DNA of 64,000 nt, taken from Candidatus Pyrohabitans jungbluthii. Its GTDB lineage: Archaea; Hydrothermarchaeota; Hydrothermarchaeia; Hydrothermarchaeales; BMS3B. The position numbers and the translations under genes are program-made. The notes below the pieces were generated by a model. It had not been told where the DNA came from. It saw only the letters and a list, made by a program, of their open reading frames with translations, and did no database searches. Of this stretch, positions 6,236 to 12,531 are shown piece after piece (within the stretch, counting starts at the first letter, position 1; every line of letters starts with the position of its first letter). The stretch covers positions 1 through 64,000 of the forward strand of contig MTMD02000001.1 of NCBI GenBank assembly GCA_002010065.2, in the 5' to 3' direction.

Positions 6236-6345
6236 AGCTTGGGGTTAAGCGTTTCGGAAATATAAAGGCTGTGGTTGGGTGGGGTGTGGGTAGAGGATAT
6301 GTAGTAGTAAGCACTAAACAGTTATCATAGTGAGGGATTATCCTT

Positions 6346-7599
6346 TTACATTCTCTTTTTGATTTCCTTAAAAGTCCAGATATTGTGAAAACCTCTCCGT
6401 TTATTACGATTACTCCCCCTAAATATAACAACGTGAATACCAATATCTTTGCATATATCACAGTTACAAGTTTCCCATGGCTTATCTTCCAAGGTTCTGC
6501 GATATTTTTCCTCTAGATTTCTCCCATCTGTATTTCGAAGAAGAAGTTTGTCGTATCTTAACACTATATTTAGTACATCATCTATATCAATTTCCCCTCT
6601 TTCATATTTAATTAATGCACTTAAAGCTTCTCTTTCCATTTTTTTGAGTTCTTCAACAGAAAAACCATTTAAATCTGCATTTTTTAAGACTCTTGGGTCT
6701 GTAGCTTGAGGCACTCTTATGGCAGTATACCATTTACCATTTGGTGCCAGATAGTTTTGTCCAGACCTTAGCCACGCTTTGCGAAAGAATGAAGCACTGT
6801 CAAAGCTTGTCACACCCAACGTCTCAAAATCTTTCAAATGATTTGGCCTCGAAATACCAAACAAATGAACATTTAATCCATCAACAAATGGTTGAATCTC
6901 TTGTAAAACTTCTAAAATGAAGTCTGTTGTATATTGGACAAGCCCACCAATGCCGATATATTCATAGCCCATATCAACCAGAGCTTTAACAGAGCTTTTG
7001 TATGTTTCTAAATCATATCCCTGAGCTACACCTACTGGAATAAAACTATATTTATTTTCCCTGTGTAATTTCAAAAATTTTTTTGCATTTTTTATTGTAA
7101 TTTTAATCCTACGATTTTTTTCTCTTTTAGATAAGATTTTCTTTTTTCTTTTACCTGTTTTCTTGTCTCTAACAAAGATATAGTCTACAACCAAGTGATC
7201 AACTGAGACTCCATAATCAAAACCCAATTTTTCATATAAATTTGATACATTCTCTACAGTATAAAATGGCGGTGGTTCTTTTTCTTTTACGTACCCAAAT
7301 GCCCCACAATCACCCATAACCACCAACGACAATTCTTCTGGAATCTTTAAGTAATTTTTTATATTTGTCTGGTTTCTTATCTTATAATGGACACCATCAC
7401 CATTTAAAGATATCTTTGATTGAAATACGCTTAAACTAAACAAAATTCCGTCATAAGGAGGCTCTTTAAATATTTGATGAGCATATACATCATTTTCATA
7501 GGGATTTTTTTTATGTTCTTCAGAATATTCATCATTAACAAAATCGAAGTTTGGATCTAACCTGTCTTCCCAATCAGGCAAAAAATATTTTAGTTTCAT
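6346..7599 (-). CDS. dpdA: DpdA-type deazaguanine DNA transglycosylase (TGT paralogue)
   Basis: N-terminal YFLPDWEDRLDPNFDF...YAHQIF..PPYDGIL, catalytic GDCGAF and SFDSAS aspartates, HLFG, zinc site CNCDIC...RRGFHN; matches my recollection of DpdA rather than tRNA-acting TGT. Confidence 0.85.
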   Translation of the reverse strand: MKLKYFLPDWEDRLDPNFDFVNDEYSEEHKKNPYENDVYAHQIFKEPPYDGILFSLSVFQSKISLNGDGVHYKIRNQTNIKNYLKIPEELSLVVMGDCGAFGYVKEKEPPPFYTVENVSNLYEKLGFDYGVSVDHLVVDYIFVRDKKTGKRKKKILSKREKNRRIKITIKNAKKFLKLHRENKYSFIPVGVAQGYDLETYKSSVKALVDMGYEYIGIGGLVQYTTDFILEVLQEIQPFVDGLNVHLFGISRPNHLKDFETLGVTSFDSASFFRKAWLRSGQNYLAPNGKWYTAIRVPQATDPRVLKNADLNGFSVEELKKMEREALSALIKYERGEIDIDDVLNIVLRYDKLLLRNTDGRNLEEKYRRTLEDKPWETCNCDICKDIGIHVVIFRGSNRNKRRGFHNIWTFKEIKKRM

Positions 7600-7609
7600 A
7601 ACTATCCAC

Positions 7610-8815
7610 CTATGGTACTGTTGGATGATAAGGTCCTCCTGATTTTTCTATTTGGCTATTAGCCCCTCTACAAAATGTCTTAAAATCACATGTCGTACAA
7701 TTCCTTTTAAGTGGATTTGAATACCAGGAAGAGGTTATAGGATTGCCATTCATTTCAGATAAAACACTATTTTCAATTTTTCTGACCACCCTATCGAATT
7801 CTTGAAGAGCATTTTGAATTCGACTTTTATCAACTGGGATTATTCTAATTGATCTCTGTTCTCTGAATAACGTAGAAAGCTGAGGTGGAAAAGTATTTTT
7901 TTCCCAATCTTGAATCAACTGTAGGTCTAATCCCTGAGGCATTACATCTGTTGCATTATTCCTTACATCATTTTGGAGTTCTTTCATATCTTCTTGAGAT
8001 GGTGCCAACTCATTAATATAAAATATTATTCCCGCAACAACTTCTCGAGACTGATGTTGTCGCTTACGAAGCCATGCATACGTAAGTATTTGCCACTCAT
8101 GATACTCCCATGACGGATCTTTTGAAGAAGGTCTCCTCATACCTTTATAGTCGATTATTATTTCATACTCTGGAGATGACAGTCTCTTTATTATATTTTG
8201 TAATTGAGAATTTTGATGGAGATAATGTAAAATTAAATTCCCAGAGGGAGCGTTTTGGAGATTTACAGAACTTATTACGTCTATGACCCCTGTAATTCCA
8301 TAATAGTTACACCTATCTCTTGGCTGATAGTCAGGCATATCACGAATCCCTCTTAGTCTCACCTCTGCCTCATCAATTAATGGAAATAAATGAGGGCCCC
8401 AGGTATTAATTGCTGCCTCTGCCCTTTGACTTGCGATCAATTTATGTGGATGATTTGGATCGGGACATAAACCTGGGCGTGAAAAATTTGTATCATATGG
8501 ACAAAAAACCCGTGGCGGTGGATTTAACCCTCTTGCTTTTAATCTTCGATTTATTCGTAGTTCAATCTCTCTGATTTCAGAGTCCCATCTCCATGGAAAC
8601 TTTCTTTTTAGTGAATCCTGATGCCACTCAAGAAAAGCTTCTTCCATAACACCATGTATAAATTCCCCAAACCATATCTGGACAGGTTTAGATGGTGGCA
8701 GAGAATTTCTGTTATGGAGTCTATATTGAAGTCCACACGTTAAGAATGCCAACAAGTCTCCAGTTAGACTGTATTCAGGAATTTTATATGGTGGTTGATT
8801 TACAGATAGTGGCAT
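7610..8815 (-). CDS. PD-(D/E)XK nuclease with probable 4Fe-4S staple (AddB/Cas4-like)
   Basis: N-terminal Cys (LTCGLQY), GVIDV, IIDYKG, QILTY motif, C-terminal CTTCDFKTFC. Confidence 0.85.
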   Translation of the reverse strand: MPLSVNQPPYKIPEYSLTGDLLAFLTCGLQYRLHNRNSLPPSKPVQIWFGEFIHGVMEEAFLEWHQDSLKRKFPWRWDSEIREIELRINRRLKARGLNPPPRVFCPYDTNFSRPGLCPDPNHPHKLIASQRAEAAINTWGPHLFPLIDEAEVRLRGIRDMPDYQPRDRCNYYGITGVIDVISSVNLQNAPSGNLILHYLHQNSQLQNIIKRLSSPEYEIIIDYKGMRRPSSKDPSWEYHEWQILTYAWLRKRQHQSREVVAGIIFYINELAPSQEDMKELQNDVRNNATDVMPQGLDLQLIQDWEKNTFPPQLSTLFREQRSIRIIPVDKSRIQNALQEFDRVVRKIENSVLSEMNGNPITSSWYSNPLKRNCTTCDFKTFCRGANSQIEKSGGPYHPTVP

Positions 8816-8827
8816 ACTCTCACCTCC

Positions 8828-11230
8828 CTAAATATGAATTATGTTTGGAAGACCTCTACCCCATCTCCAGTTACCATTCCTATCCCAACCAGTAGCTATA
8901 TTGGGAATCTCTTTCCTACCGATTTTCTTAAAATACCCATTTCTTACACTATTTAGGCCTACAAGCATTAAAACATCTCGTGCTCTGCTAAATGCCACAA
9001 AATATTGCCTTATTAGGTCATCAAATGCTCTATCTATGGCATGCCTTTGGGGCGTTCCTAGAGGGGAATAAGGTCTTAATTCCTCTTCCATATTTACACT
9101 ACTTATTCTATCAACCCTTCCTACTCTATTAAGTCTAGGAAATCTTTTAAATGCATGTGCATAATGGTTTTCCCTAAAATCTGAACCAACATCTACAATC
9201 ACTAATGGAAATTCTAGTCCTTTCGCTTGATGTATAGACATTATATTTAATCTATTTGAGGGTATTGTTTCAAGAAGGTCTTCATTAATTTCAATAGTAC
9301 CGGTAGCAATCGGTACAAAAATATTCCATAACGCTTCTCTTATAGACGACTCCGAACGTGAGTCACTCGGGTCAAATATTATCTGTCCTCCAAAATTACC
9401 GATTAGCCCTGCTTGATTAATCGTTCTTGTTATCGCTTCCAAGTAAACTAAACCTTCAATATCATCTTGCATCCGTGGTATCCACGTAACTAACTTATAT
9501 ACCAAGCTTATTAGTGGAACTTCTGGATCTACTCTATCCTCTCTTCTTAAAAGAATCCTCCTATTTTGCCATGCATCAACAAACTCTCTAAGCGTCGGAT
9601 TATGAGGTGGTGGATTAGTGTCGATATAACTTCTCGCTACATCCCTCCACTCATTAAAAATAGAAACCACATTACGTGGTAAATTCAACATGTTTTGTAC
9701 ATTTTCATTTGGATCTATACATTCTAAAATTAAACCACAAAGTTGTTGAACTTCTGGGGTTAGCTCTAAGTTTTGTCCTCTTGGATTAAAAACTTGAATT
9801 GGAGGAGATAACTGACTTAATTCATCTCGTAATAATCGCGGAAGTCTTTGTCTTCCCCGTGAGTCAAATTCACGAGGAGAGCTACAAAGCACAGCAATAT
9901 CTCCCGGGCCACCCCGATTAGGGTCAATTTGTATATTATATTGTCCATGAGAATCTTGAATTTGAACGCCTCCTCCATATATAACACTATGAATGAACCG
10001 AGCGAGATCATGTGCGAGTTCTTCAACGGTATCTCTAAACATGCCAAGTATGGGGTAATTATCGTATGGTTGAGAACGTGCTGGAATAATATGTGGTTTA
10101 TTTTGAACCCTCGCATTCTGATAATGCTGGTCTAAAGTGATAAAATTATTACAAAAATCTACTATATTACTTGTAGACCTATAATTTCTGGAAAGATTGA
10201 TTGTTTGAGGATTAGCACGAAGATTATCACTTATTCTATTTCTAAATTCTTGAAACAGATCAACTGTAGCTCCACGAAACCGATACAAAGACTGATCATC
10301 ATCTCCTACAACAGTAATACTTCCACCATTTTCTAAAGCTGCCCTTGCCATTTCAAAATATATCTGTTCTTGAAGCAAATTTGTATCTTGGTATTCATCT
10401 ATAAGTATAAACCTAAGTTGTTGAAGGAATCTATTTAGTGCTCCATCACGAAGCCTGTTCAGAAACTCTTGCTCTAACAATGCAAAATCAAAAAGACCTC
10501 TACTATTTAATTCATTAAGGTAATCTTGAATAGTGTCACATACAACTGGAATACCTGAGTGGCTTAAACTATTTCTGAACTGAGACACATCTACTTGATC
10601 GTGGAAGAACCTATCTTTTATCTCACATAACATTTCAGCTGCTTTATCAGGCTTCAAATTGCTCCTTGAAACTAAACCAAAACTACTACCATTCAATTGT
10701 ACGAGATAATCTCTGAGATCCCTATTTCTAAATCTTCCATGATTGAAAAGTTGTCTTACCATTAAGCCCTTAGATACGAAACTCTCTATAACGGCTGGTA
10801 GTTTGTCTCCTGGTGCACGATAATCTCCTAAAATTTCTTCTGCAATACTATCTATTGTTCCAATAATTACCCTGCTTAAATCTAAATTCTCTAATTGATT
10901 TCTAATATGGTTATCATAAGAAAAATCTTCTCTAAACTTGCGGATTAGCTGGTCTCCCCATCCCAAGATTCTCGATCTTAATTCTGCTGCCGCTTTTCTG
11001 GTAAAAGTCGTTACCAAAATGTTAGAAGGTTCAATATCATCCACAAAGATCAATTTTAATACTCTTAATGCAATTACGGTTGTTTTGCCACTACCTGGTC
11101 CGGCAACAATAAATAAGGACTGATTTAGAGGTGCTCTTATTGCTCTGTTTTGATCCGGATTGCTATTACTTCTAATATCTCTGTCGAGTTGATTAACGAC
11201 AGCACTCTCAAAATCATACCAACTAATCAG
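8828..11230 (-). CDS. UvrD/PcrA superfamily 1 DNA helicase (probable CTG start)
   Basis: Motifs Ia TFTRKAA, II DEYQD, III GDDDQSLYRFRG, IV NYRS, V IHQAKGLEF, VI FVAFSRA. Walker A AGPGSGKTT lies in frame upstream of the track start (11053); CTG at 11230 follows GGAGGTGA. Confidence 0.9.
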   Translation of the reverse strand: MISWYDFESAVVNQLDRDIRSNSNPDQNRAIRAPLNQSLFIVAGPGSGKTTVIALRVLKLIFVDDIEPSNILVTTFTRKAAAELRSRILGWGDQLIRKFREDFSYDNHIRNQLENLDLSRVIIGTIDSIAEEILGDYRAPGDKLPAVIESFVSKGLMVRQLFNHGRFRNRDLRDYLVQLNGSSFGLVSRSNLKPDKAAEMLCEIKDRFFHDQVDVSQFRNSLSHSGIPVVCDTIQDYLNELNSRGLFDFALLEQEFLNRLRDGALNRFLQQLRFILIDEYQDTNLLQEQIYFEMARAALENGGSITVVGDDDQSLYRFRGATVDLFQEFRNRISDNLRANPQTINLSRNYRSTSNIVDFCNNFITLDQHYQNARVQNKPHIIPARSQPYDNYPILGMFRDTVEELAHDLARFIHSVIYGGGVQIQDSHGQYNIQIDPNRGGPGDIAVLCSSPREFDSRGRQRLPRLLRDELSQLSPPIQVFNPRGQNLELTPEVQQLCGLILECIDPNENVQNMLNLPRNVVSIFNEWRDVARSYIDTNPPPHNPTLREFVDAWQNRRILLRREDRVDPEVPLISLVYKLVTWIPRMQDDIEGLVYLEAITRTINQAGLIGNFGGQIIFDPSDSRSESSIREALWNIFVPIATGTIEINEDLLETIPSNRLNIMSIHQAKGLEFPLVIVDVGSDFRENHYAHAFKRFPRLNRVGRVDRISSVNMEEELRPYSPLGTPQRHAIDRAFDDLIRQYFVAFSRARDVLMLVGLNSVRNGYFKKIGRKEIPNIATGWDRNGNWRWGRGLPNIIHI

Positions 11231-11697
11231 TATATCACCTCCACTTCTCTATTTATTTTGTTGAGCCAATTCTTTAGTTGATGGAGTCTTTCCCCAATTT
11301 CTCCGGTTGCCCAGTACACATTTTGTTTATTAAGAACCCTTTTACCTCTTTCCAACGCAAGCATATACGTTTTACCGAGATTTACAAACACTTCTTTATA
11401 ATTATTATTTTTCAATGCATTTATTAATTTAATTTCAATTTCATTTGCTAATTCTTTCGCTCTCTCGATGGTCATCTTTTGATCATAATTTGAGATAGTA
11501 TCATTTTGTCTGATCAACCCATATTTTGCTGAAAGTATCAATATATCCAGATTATTTGGCATATTTTTTCGTAGTACACGATAGAACGGTCCATCGTATA
11601 ATTCAATTGCAGGGGCTTTTGAAATTGGCTTCTTTCGCTTTGAACAAGGTAAAATGATTAAATACTTCTTACTTTGGCTAACATTATTCTCGTCCAT
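11227..11697 (-). CDS. DUF6884/YaaA-like protein (possible small DpdC counterpart)
   Basis: IILPCSKRK...AIELYDGPFY...ILSAKYGLI...YD motif set; first gene of the island operon. Confidence 0.75.
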   Translation of the reverse strand: MDENNVSQSKKYLIILPCSKRKKPISKAPAIELYDGPFYRVLRKNMPNNLDILILSAKYGLIRQNDTISNYDQKMTIERAKELANEIEIKLINALKNNNYKEVFVNLGKTYMLALERGKRVLNKQNVYWATGEIGERLHQLKNWLNKINREVEVIY

Positions 11698-11964
11698 TTT
11701 CTACCACCTAACGACTTTCCGTTATGTTCATGATAACGTACATCAACCCCTCTGATTATCTCTACACCTCCCAAACAATTAGATTAATTTTCTGATAACA
11801 GACCACTGATATAAAATTCTTTCCATTTATTGGGTGCTGTGAAGTTTATAACGTTCGAACTCGGTTTTTCCTTCTATTGGTCTGGGAATTCTCCCAAGCT
11901 TTGACGCACCCTTGCGTGGTTGTAGTACAAACCAAACAGCCGCAGGAAGTTGGACACACATACT

Positions 11965-12207
11965 CTATCTTATAACATCTGCACGGGAAGTACTAATCAA
12001 TACCTGCTGTTTTTTTGCTATACTTTCCTTAACCTCTAATGCTAATTTATTAGCCATATCCTCACTTAATTTGCTCTTTGATACTATATCTCGAGCAACA
12101 GTCCATTTAACTTCATCAAAGAACTTCTTTAGAACACTGTCTATAGCTTTTTCAAATTTGTCCTGCATCCCCTCAGGCACATCCACCTTTATTACAATCT
12201 CACCCAT
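11965..12207 (-). pseudogene. Small antitoxin-like protein, probably truncated/read-through, no cognate toxin
   Basis: MGEIVIKVDVPEG... resembles archaeal antitoxins; the tail QQVLISTSRADVIR looks like junction sequence. Confidence 0.45.
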
Positions 12208-12531
12208 CTTCTCCACCTGCTTAATATTTAACATTTTAACCTTTAAAAATAAATCTTAAATATGAATTAAAATAAAAAATAATTATAATTAGCATAATTT
12301 TTAGAGAAATTTGTAAGATTACATTATTTATTATATTCTTAATTATTTATCATTCTTTGTTTATGAATTAACCAAGAATCTTGGGGTTATTTGGAATAAG
12401 CGTGTAGTCAATCCGCCTGACCTCAACAACCTTCTCCATTTTTCATCCTCATTCTATAAATAAACCTCCTGACTTATTAATCATTTTTGAGGTGCTCCGC
12501 CTTAGCGACGTTACACCCCTCTCTTACTTAA

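Follow-up and report, generated by a model that had tools for sequence, protein, structure and literature searches.

A compact, mobile four-gene cassette in an archaeal genome combines a DpdA-type transglycosylase and a DpdC-like domain with a helicase-nuclease pair

The Dpd system of Salmonella Montevideo comprises eleven genes, dpdA-K, and two papers in the field present as unsolved the identity of the protein that restricts unmodified DNA and the reason for which DpdA of bacteria depends on DpdB hydrolysing ATP (PMC10164549, PMC5699537). The GATOR-GC survey demanded dpdAB in bacteria, and it records islands without a restriction operon. Here, we describe a four-gene cassette that encodes a DpdA, a small DUF6884 protein, a superfamily 1 (SF1) helicase and a nuclease within a 64,000-nucleotide stretch of the archaeon Candidatus Pyrohabitans jungbluthii (hereafter the window; positions 1 to 64,000 of contig MTMD02000001.1, assembly GCA_002010065.2). 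Our analyses show that the cassette is real, intact and mobile, and that it is a Dpd variant, being neither a canonical Dpd system nor AddAB. It is invisible to the GATOR-GC survey because dpdAB in bacteria was required there, and full-text literature searches on Dpd, DUF6884, PDC-M57 and the helicase-nuclease pair yielded no description of it, with a prior mention being possible in key Dpd papers or in supplements (PMC5704561, GATOR-GC, PMC12839542).

Four intact, co-oriented open reading frames (ORFs) on the minus strand at 6346-11697 encode the DUF6884 protein, the helicase, the nuclease and DpdA (Table 1), in agreement with an earlier model-made annotation of the window, the sequence-only reading, which had described four tightly packed, AT-rich genes. 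The DUF6884 stop and the helicase start overlap by 4 nucleotides (nt), and the remaining gaps measure 12 and 10 nt. GC content of the cassette genes is 0.33-0.37, with 0.24-0.31 at third codon positions (GC3), compared to 0.527 in the remaining window. The 5.4-kb cassette is flanked by trpS on one side and a B12-binding radical SAM gene on the other. Three other studies (runs X3-X5) yielded contigs that agree with the block, no differences being listed, and that cross both of its junctions as well as the CTG codon at which the helicase begins; this confirmation is pieced together, since no single contig spans the whole stretch, and run X2, a possible source sample, is left uncounted. The CTG start lies at 11230, where it forms the overlap with the upstream stop, and Walker A of the helicase (residues 44-50) is located upstream of the first TTG. 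At the corresponding position, ATG or GTG is found in 10 of the 11 relatives examined and CTG in one. Thus, the helicase gene was correctly recognized before, while its length is 800 amino acids (aa) from CTG and not 741 aa from the first TTG.

Table 1. Coordinates of the cassette genes and of the insertion that carries them (window positions).
Feature	Coordinates	Strand	Support or remark
DUF6884 protein, 156 aa	11227..11697	-	PF21818 E 3e-15
UvrD/PcrA-type SF1 helicase, 800 aa	8828..11230	-	PF00580 E 2e-35, PF13361
PD-(D/E)XK nuclease (RecB/AddB/Cas4-like), 401 aa	7610..8815	-	PF12705 E 4e-13
DpdA DNA-guanine transglycosylase, 417 aa	6346..7599	-	NF041059 443.8 bits; PADLOC DpdA 4.5e-130
Orphan gene, 89 aa	11965..12234	-	probable antitoxin; part of the variable site, outside the cassette
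Variable low-GC insertion, 0.353 GC, 6.2 kb	6279..12501	.	between trpS and the radical SAM gene

Judged by its sequence, the transglycosylase is a true DpdA and not a tRNA enzyme. It clears the cut-off of NF041059 (200 bits) by a wide margin while scoring only 28-33 bits on models of tRNA-guanine transglycosylases (TGT), and within PDB its sequence matches only the DNA transglycosylase 7UI4 (E 3.5e-86). The protein retains D97, D134, D267, F101, H245 and F247 together with the zinc ligands C378, C380, C383 and H405, which are invariant. The counterparts of D97, D134 and D267 in the alignment with Salmonella DpdA are its Asp95, Asp130 and Asp256, and His181 of that enzyme corresponds to Gln193 here, as is likewise the case in nearly all aligned homologues. 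In addition, GGLVQY matches the GGhsbb motif of the preQ0 type as defined by Gedara 2023 (PMC10164549). Compared with arcTGT and Tgt, the protein sided with DpdA and not with the tRNA-acting enzymes, and its earlier identification as DpdA holds on the model scores, the 7UI4 match and the intact catalytic Asp and zinc motifs. Activity on tRNA might be suspected from its membership of the TGT superfamily (PF01702) and from the family name still in use at NCBI, 'tRNA-guanine transglycosylase DpdA'. Considering these scores, the DNA enzyme as only PDB match and the separate arcTGT and Tgt genes of the genome, both above their cut-offs, we regard such an activity as scarcely credible. A single-sequence query revealed no DpdA relatives in viral contigs.

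With respect to substrate supply, the genome encodes QueC and QueD above cut-off, a queE-like gene between them (below equivalog cut-offs) and YhhQ above cut-off, in line with the earlier proposal that the system draws on the host preQ0 pool, whose use by DpdA is predicted. A gene for the YhhQ/Vut_1 preQ0 transporter follows dpdA in two related loci (L011 and L012), and a remnant of it is found in a third (L009). In the preQ0 operon, a DUF366 gene lies between queC and the queE-like gene (G000:C2:352-354k; L136:2780-5068). Besides arcTGT and YhhQ, the genome encodes a bacterial-type queuine Tgt at G000:C2:385654-386715 (L001; TIGR00430 433.2 versus 306.75 bits), and similar Tgt-like frames of 364-387 aa are present in several relatives. 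With these genes, this archaeon may carry queuosine-type bases in its tRNA.

Based on its alignments, we assign the small protein as the stand-alone N-terminal catalytic domain of DpdC. Its PADLOC matches were PDC-M57A (2.7e-11) and DpdC (3.9e-7), and no other PDC-M57 model matched any of the five proteins scanned. C18xxxK22, LYxG, SAxYG and Y71 are matched in alignments by the N-terminal domain of DpdC proteins encoded in complete dpdABC loci, with the small protein spanning 156 aa versus about 300-320 aa for DpdC. Its structural model (pLDDT 89.6) resembled AF0587, which we take to be ArcS-related (Z 10.4, root-mean-square deviation (rmsd) 3.1, 122 aligned residues), and YaaA (Z 9.6, rmsd 3.2, 138 aligned). 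The protein also matches DUF5591, the core domain of ArcS according to Cui 2023, and weakly an ArcS model. Fusions of DUF6884 with DpdA occur in 49 of the best 150 DpdA representatives and, within the clade of this protein, at either DpdA end (L074, L143, L144); this repeated fusion supports a shared pathway. The protein is predicted to act on the nitrile of dPreQ0. By analogy, it most likely performs the post-insertion step of DpdC, which is reported to follow insertion and to be independent of DpdA/B (Gedara 2023, PMC10164549), and for this reason it does not fill the DpdB gap. Hence, the proposed YaaA-like partner of DpdA is indeed DpdC-related and linked to DpdA by fusions, but it does not explain how DpdA functions without DpdB.

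All SF1 motif residues checked are intact in the helicase, and its PDB matches are UvrD, PcrA and AddA. The nuclease carries the invariant residues D179, D222, K224, Q242 and Y246 and four cysteines (C27 and C373/C376/C382), from which we infer an Fe-S staple. Foldseek searches with its model returned ACE1, AddB and Cas4 as best matches, with the Cys-bearing ends being of low confidence. The pair had been called AddAB-like, which applies to the component domains and the four-Cys pattern but not to the architecture, as there is a single SF1 motor and a single nuclease domain instead of two each. The nuclease was also considered as a CRISPR Cas4 and rejected, given 23.1 bits on the cas4 model TIGR00372 (cut-off 65) and an insertion whose ORFs include no cas genes. 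The nuclease has a further conserved Cys/His set (C105, C117 and H124), possibly a second metal site, which most archaeal members of the cassette retain and which most homologues from Methanobrevibacter and plasmids have lost. A distant nuclease subfamily of 305-320 aa, sometimes fused to the helicase (L160, L185), adjoins other dpdA genes; searching for longer fused nuclease forms gave one protein of 917 aa, which is weak evidence. No nuclease match was found among 50,697 phage records.

Comparison with related genomes indicated that the block is a horizontally acquired, mobile cassette at a variable hotspot. In G004, which belongs to the same genus, trpS is joined directly to the radical SAM gene, bounding the variable region (Table 1), and G002 has a different cargo at the same site. 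Other cargo is also found in G001, which shares only the right end, where a homologue of the 89-aa gene is followed by a PIN_2 toxin protein. The 89-aa orphan of the window, which had no family match of its own in profile searches, is probably an antitoxin left without its PIN toxin. The radical SAM gene, present in 5/5 relatives tested, was rejected as a member of the system and belongs to the core genome. No match at the level of DpdA was detected among 60 relatives (best E 7.8e-9) and none to the nuclease among 40, several of these genomes being incomplete. The window contains no tRNA genes, a repeat scan revealed no att-like repeats above chance at the insertion ends, and a promoter and terminator scan gave nothing above chance (23 promoter-like sites versus 24.2 in shuffles). 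Further low-GC defence spots of the same genome (C5:33.2-37.0k, C8:257-262k and C14:72-82k; L127, L130 and L131) contain an OLD/GajA-like ATPase accompanied by a PDC-S41-like helicase, a type II adenine methyltransferase and a set of type I restriction-modification genes.

The sequence-only reading had also stated that neither DpdB nor DpdD-K accompanies the cassette. In the host genome, which is 99.95% complete, PADLOC gave no DpdB match, DpdB controls being likewise silent in that scan. Tblastn and a local hidden Markov model (HMM) detected no DpdB in the genome either, and the same queries did detect it in six other loci (L139, L140, L164, L165, L168 and L171). A weak DndB match at C2:618k (PF14072, 16 bits, below cut-off) was rejected as DpdB, since it is a 275-aa ORF in a glycosylation-type island without PADLOC match. 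Queries for DpdD, DpdG, DpdH, DpdI and DpdK taken from plasmid loci gave no genome match; DpdE had no query, and that for DpdF, an out-of-frame fragment, was unusable. Matches to DpdJ covered the helicase part only, lay elsewhere in the genome and recurred in 13/14 control genomes, and were read as housekeeping proteins, presumably Lhr-type helicases. The claimed absence therefore stands for DpdB and for DpdD, G, H, I and K, with DpdE and DpdF outside the valid queries. As for an energy source in place of DpdB, the helicase is the only NTPase of the cassette, and it has been proposed that DpdB is perhaps dispensable in some clusters (PMC12839542).

To evaluate the association of the helicase-nuclease pair with DpdA, we used the best 80 of 208 confirmed nuclease loci from GTDB genomes. 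Title, tree or gene context placed 64 of them in a Methanobacteriales group, and the remaining 16 fall into other lineages. Among these 16, dpdA is present in the locus in nine and anywhere in the genome in 12, versus 0/34 Methanobacteriales genomes tested (of 64). The order DUF6884-helicase-nuclease-dpdA is conserved in six loci (L010-L015), which belong to Altiarchaeota, two Dehalococcoidia, Methanotrichaceae, Methanoperedens and an uncultured archaeon, and in metagenome contig L093. Two further metagenome contigs found via DpdA, L089 and L092, also encode the nuclease, as does L093. In L083 the order is rearranged, DUF6884 is missing from L020, and L009 retains a 26-codon dpdA remnant with broken helicase and nuclease. 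Another cassette, in a record titled Nitrosotalea (L022/G074), also looks broken, with an interrupted helicase and a truncated nuclease; this genome shares its GTDB phylum with the Methanotrichaceae genome G065, and the title may mislead.

The same link was observed on plasmids. Among 72,556 records, nuclease and helicase occur in the same three, all of them among the 17 DpdA plasmids and 2-9 kb from dpdA (hypergeometric 1e-11, ignoring plasmid size). Two of these (L139, L140) carry the pair beside dpdC/B/A/B and queCDE, that is, with two DpdB genes, and no dpdD-K genes were found in the 19 kb fetched. In a sample of the phylum of G065, DpdA was detected in 18/401 genomes and the nuclease in 8/296; leaving out the centre genome, six of seven nuclease-positive genomes have DpdA (Fisher p 4e-9, taking the 296 to come first in the same draw, with kinship disregarded), with the pair lying 128 kb from dpdA in one of the six and on another contig in a second. 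In the seventh (L184:9371-17695, G356:C13), where DpdA was not found, the helicase and a distant 305-aa nuclease lie divergently beside folE2-queD-queC-queE and an AGOG-like N-glycosylase; the glycosylase may stand in for DpdA, or dpdA may lie past the contig end. Moreover, the divergences of DpdA and nuclease are correlated over 17 loci (Spearman 0.73, permutation p 6e-4). Taken together, the four-gene order and the pair-dpdA association both recur elsewhere (3/3 plasmids, 12/16 genomes, 6/7 in the phylum sample). The earlier description as an archaeal system is borne out by several archaea with this order but is too narrow, as Dehalococcoidia share it and three bacterial plasmids pair helicase and nuclease with dpdA.

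Seen from the DpdA side, the helicase-nuclease pair is one of several partners. In a quick tree, the window DpdA falls into a clade of 15 rows (SH-aLRT 99) with no DpdB in their loci and the pair or part of it in 14/15. In 16 further archaeal dpdA loci, the pair was found in six within the fetched stretch and DpdB in none. Of five dpdA plasmids without the pair that were inspected, one encodes the canonical set dpdD-K, and the helicase sets of the others are partial or different. Ten loci, probably haloarchaeal (L154-L163), encode DpdA of 730-1160 aa with insertions and a fused or adjacent DUF6884, together with a 344-aa TGT paralogue, a 298-aa unknown protein and a 385-aa BrxD-like ATPase, and DpdB is absent from this set. 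Archaeal islands L148-L151 combine a DpdA-DUF6884 fusion with an 1118-aa AAA ATPase, a DpdJ-like helicase, a MrfA-zinc-domain protein and the pair of either subfamily.

We consider it somewhat better than an even chance that the cassette is a minimal Dpd variant that writes dPreQ0 or dADG and uses the pair as a conditional restriction arm. In this scheme, DpdA would exchange guanine at a DNA sequence motif for host-made preQ0, which is strongly suggested by its family. The DUF6884 mini-DpdC would then, with moderate confidence, convert dPreQ0 into dADG or a related adduct. With moderate to weak confidence, drawn from gene context, helicase and Fe-S nuclease would act as one motor-nuclease that degrades unmarked incoming DNA in place of DpdD-K, being licensed in one of two ways, through DpdA sitting on sites without the modification or through entry at free DNA ends, with the mark serving as a brake. 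A bolder, possible but doubtful version is a four-protein immune system in which DpdA serves as both writer and target recognition, and the helicase replaces DpdB in DNA opening and drags the nuclease along foreign DNA from unmodified sites; Methanobacteriales would then have lost the writer and retained the motor-nuclease for use in repair.

Several observations weigh against a restriction arm dedicated to DpdA. None of the 64 Methanobacteriales loci fetched (from the best 80 of 208) contains dpdA or DUF6884, their nucleases keep all catalytic and Cys residues, and their neighbours include Hrq1/MrfA (33 loci), Rad50 (24), Mre11 (18) and ExoIII (9). Three other loci (L057, L058 and L044, the last a 2.8-kb contig) have the pair without DpdA in the genome, and a low-GC block of a viral contig (L138:5377-11182) reads Mrr-DUF6884-helicase-nuclease without dpdA. 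Conversely, the pair is absent nearby from 14/17 dpdA plasmids and from 10/16 further archaeal dpdA loci. Salmonella DpdA is reported as inactive without DpdB and ATP (PMC10164549), and DpdB was not found here. Furthermore, the co-occurrence tallies include kin, so that their rows are not independent. In a nuclease tree of 43 rows (13 of them retained for Methanobacteriales after thinning, three rows on long branches omitted, outgroup found from the DpdA side), the Methanobacteriales form one clade (100/100) inside a tree with DpdA-linked deeper branches, which would make loss of dpdA the simpler reading. An intact pair in DpdA-free genomes also means that it cannot be an enzyme cutting any DNA that lacks the mark, and its being tolerated there indicates that it is probably not a free-standing site-specific endonuclease. 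The restriction arm put forward by the sequence-only reading is thus backed by co-occurrence with dpdA, its role following from gene context, and tempered by intact pairs in DpdA-free Methanobacteriales and on a viral contig. In four Ca. Methanovirga loci (L077, L080, L081 and L087), the nuclease is intact and a helicase match is absent from the fetched locus.

Other roles of the pair were weighed against the same evidence. The pair could instead serve the writer, with the helicase taking over from the DpdB ATPase in opening DNA for DpdA and/or the pair clearing stalled DpdA-DNA covalent intermediates and abasic sites. We judge this unlikely, even though DpdB was found neither in this genome nor in the loci of the 15-member DpdA clade, the ATP use of DpdB is perhaps helicase-like and DpdA forms a covalent intermediate according to Gedara 2023 (PMC10164549), the pair sits among repair genes in Methanobacteriales, and the DUF6884 member YfjM has been reported as a DNA-lesion binder. 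Such a service is difficult to reconcile with the coexistence of the pair and two DpdB genes in L139 and L140, or with its absence from the DpdB-less loci L167, L169 and L170 and from 9/10 haloarchaeal-type loci (within the fetched stretch), and it would leave loci without dpdD-K devoid of a restriction arm.

Quite unlikely, in our view, is a modification-dependent defence in which DUF6884 and the pair destroy 7-deazaguanine-modified (viral) DNA while DpdA marks or protects otherwise: the host's own chromosome would be marked by an active DpdA encoded in this operon, alignments and fusions link DUF6884 to the modification side (DpdC, DpdA), and the pairs of Methanobacteriales lack DUF6884. This option draws on the dpdA-free viral block of L138, on GmrSD-type genes located directly upstream in L013, L017 and L030, and on fusions of DUF6884 to GIY-YIG nucleases in other clusters. 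Very unlikely is mere hitch-hiking, in which a generic recombination or repair helicase-nuclease and an orphan DpdA-DpdC module only share defence islands. The pair does persist vertically without DpdA in Methanobacteriales and also occurs beside type III restriction-modification (L057), BREX (L017) and methyltransferases (L023-L025, L058), and related UvrD-Cas4 fusions have been termed ancillary to several restriction-modification systems (PMC5704561). Translational coupling, a gene order kept in archaeal phyla as well as in Dehalococcoidia, the 3/3 plasmids, the recurrence of the linkage in a second, distant nuclease subfamily and the correlated divergence all argue for more than shared residence.

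The cassette shrinks an 11-gene system to four genes with one NTPase and one nuclease, DpdB not being found, which makes both questions of the Dpd field testable by single point mutants. If the minimal Dpd variant is correct, 7-deazaguanine DNA marks extend to cellular archaea, as the literature, as far as available, places archaeal ones only in tRNA and viruses. If the four-protein version holds, a type-I-like restriction logic would have been built from unrelated parts, with a cellular archaeon carrying 7-deazaguanine in its chromosome. For site-specific DNA base exchange, a cellular DpdA that works independently of DpdB could also be a simpler tool.

Compared with described systems, the cassette most resembles Dpd of Salmonella Montevideo (PMC10164549), with which it shares the catalytic Asp and preQ0 pocket motif, a DpdC-family domain, a low-GC insertion at a variable site and preQ0 genes. 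It differs in that DpdB and DpdD/G/H/I/K were not found, DpdC is cut to its 156-aa N-terminal domain, and an SF1 helicase and Fe-S nuclease are present instead, in 5.4 kb versus about 20 kb and in an archaeal host. AddAB, AdnAB and RecB likewise combine a UvrD-type SF1 motor with a RecB-family nuclease, here with an AddB-like four-Cys pattern. In contrast to AddAB, the cassette has one motor without nuclease domain (800 aa) and one nuclease without helicase domain (401 aa), scores 114.8 bits on the AddA equivalog (cut-off 707.65) and is sporadic and tied to deazaguanine genes outside Methanobacteriales. The UvrD-Cas4-like (pfam12705) proteins of Hudaiberdiev 2017 (PMC5704561) have the same two domains beside DNA-modification genes and were proposed as ancillary defence; in the text available, however, they occur in type III restriction-modification and Dcm/Vsr contexts with no Dpd link noted, whereas here the two domains are separate genes.

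BREX-related capture (BRC, PMC12839542) also uses a TGT/DpdA homologue without DpdB, with power proposed to come from another NTPase and archaea included. BRC consists of PglZ, HerA/FtsK, a STAND NTPase and GNAT and is, in the text available, reported without DpdC; none of those genes is present in the cassette. Finally, phage DpdA1-4 (PMC6884629, PMC10516641) are DpdA-type enzymes for which the available text mentions no DpdB and of which some rely on host preQ0. In contrast, the window protein fits the cellular (bDpdA) model, while the phage enzymes serve anti-restriction and are unpaired with this nuclease, which had no match in the phage records scanned.

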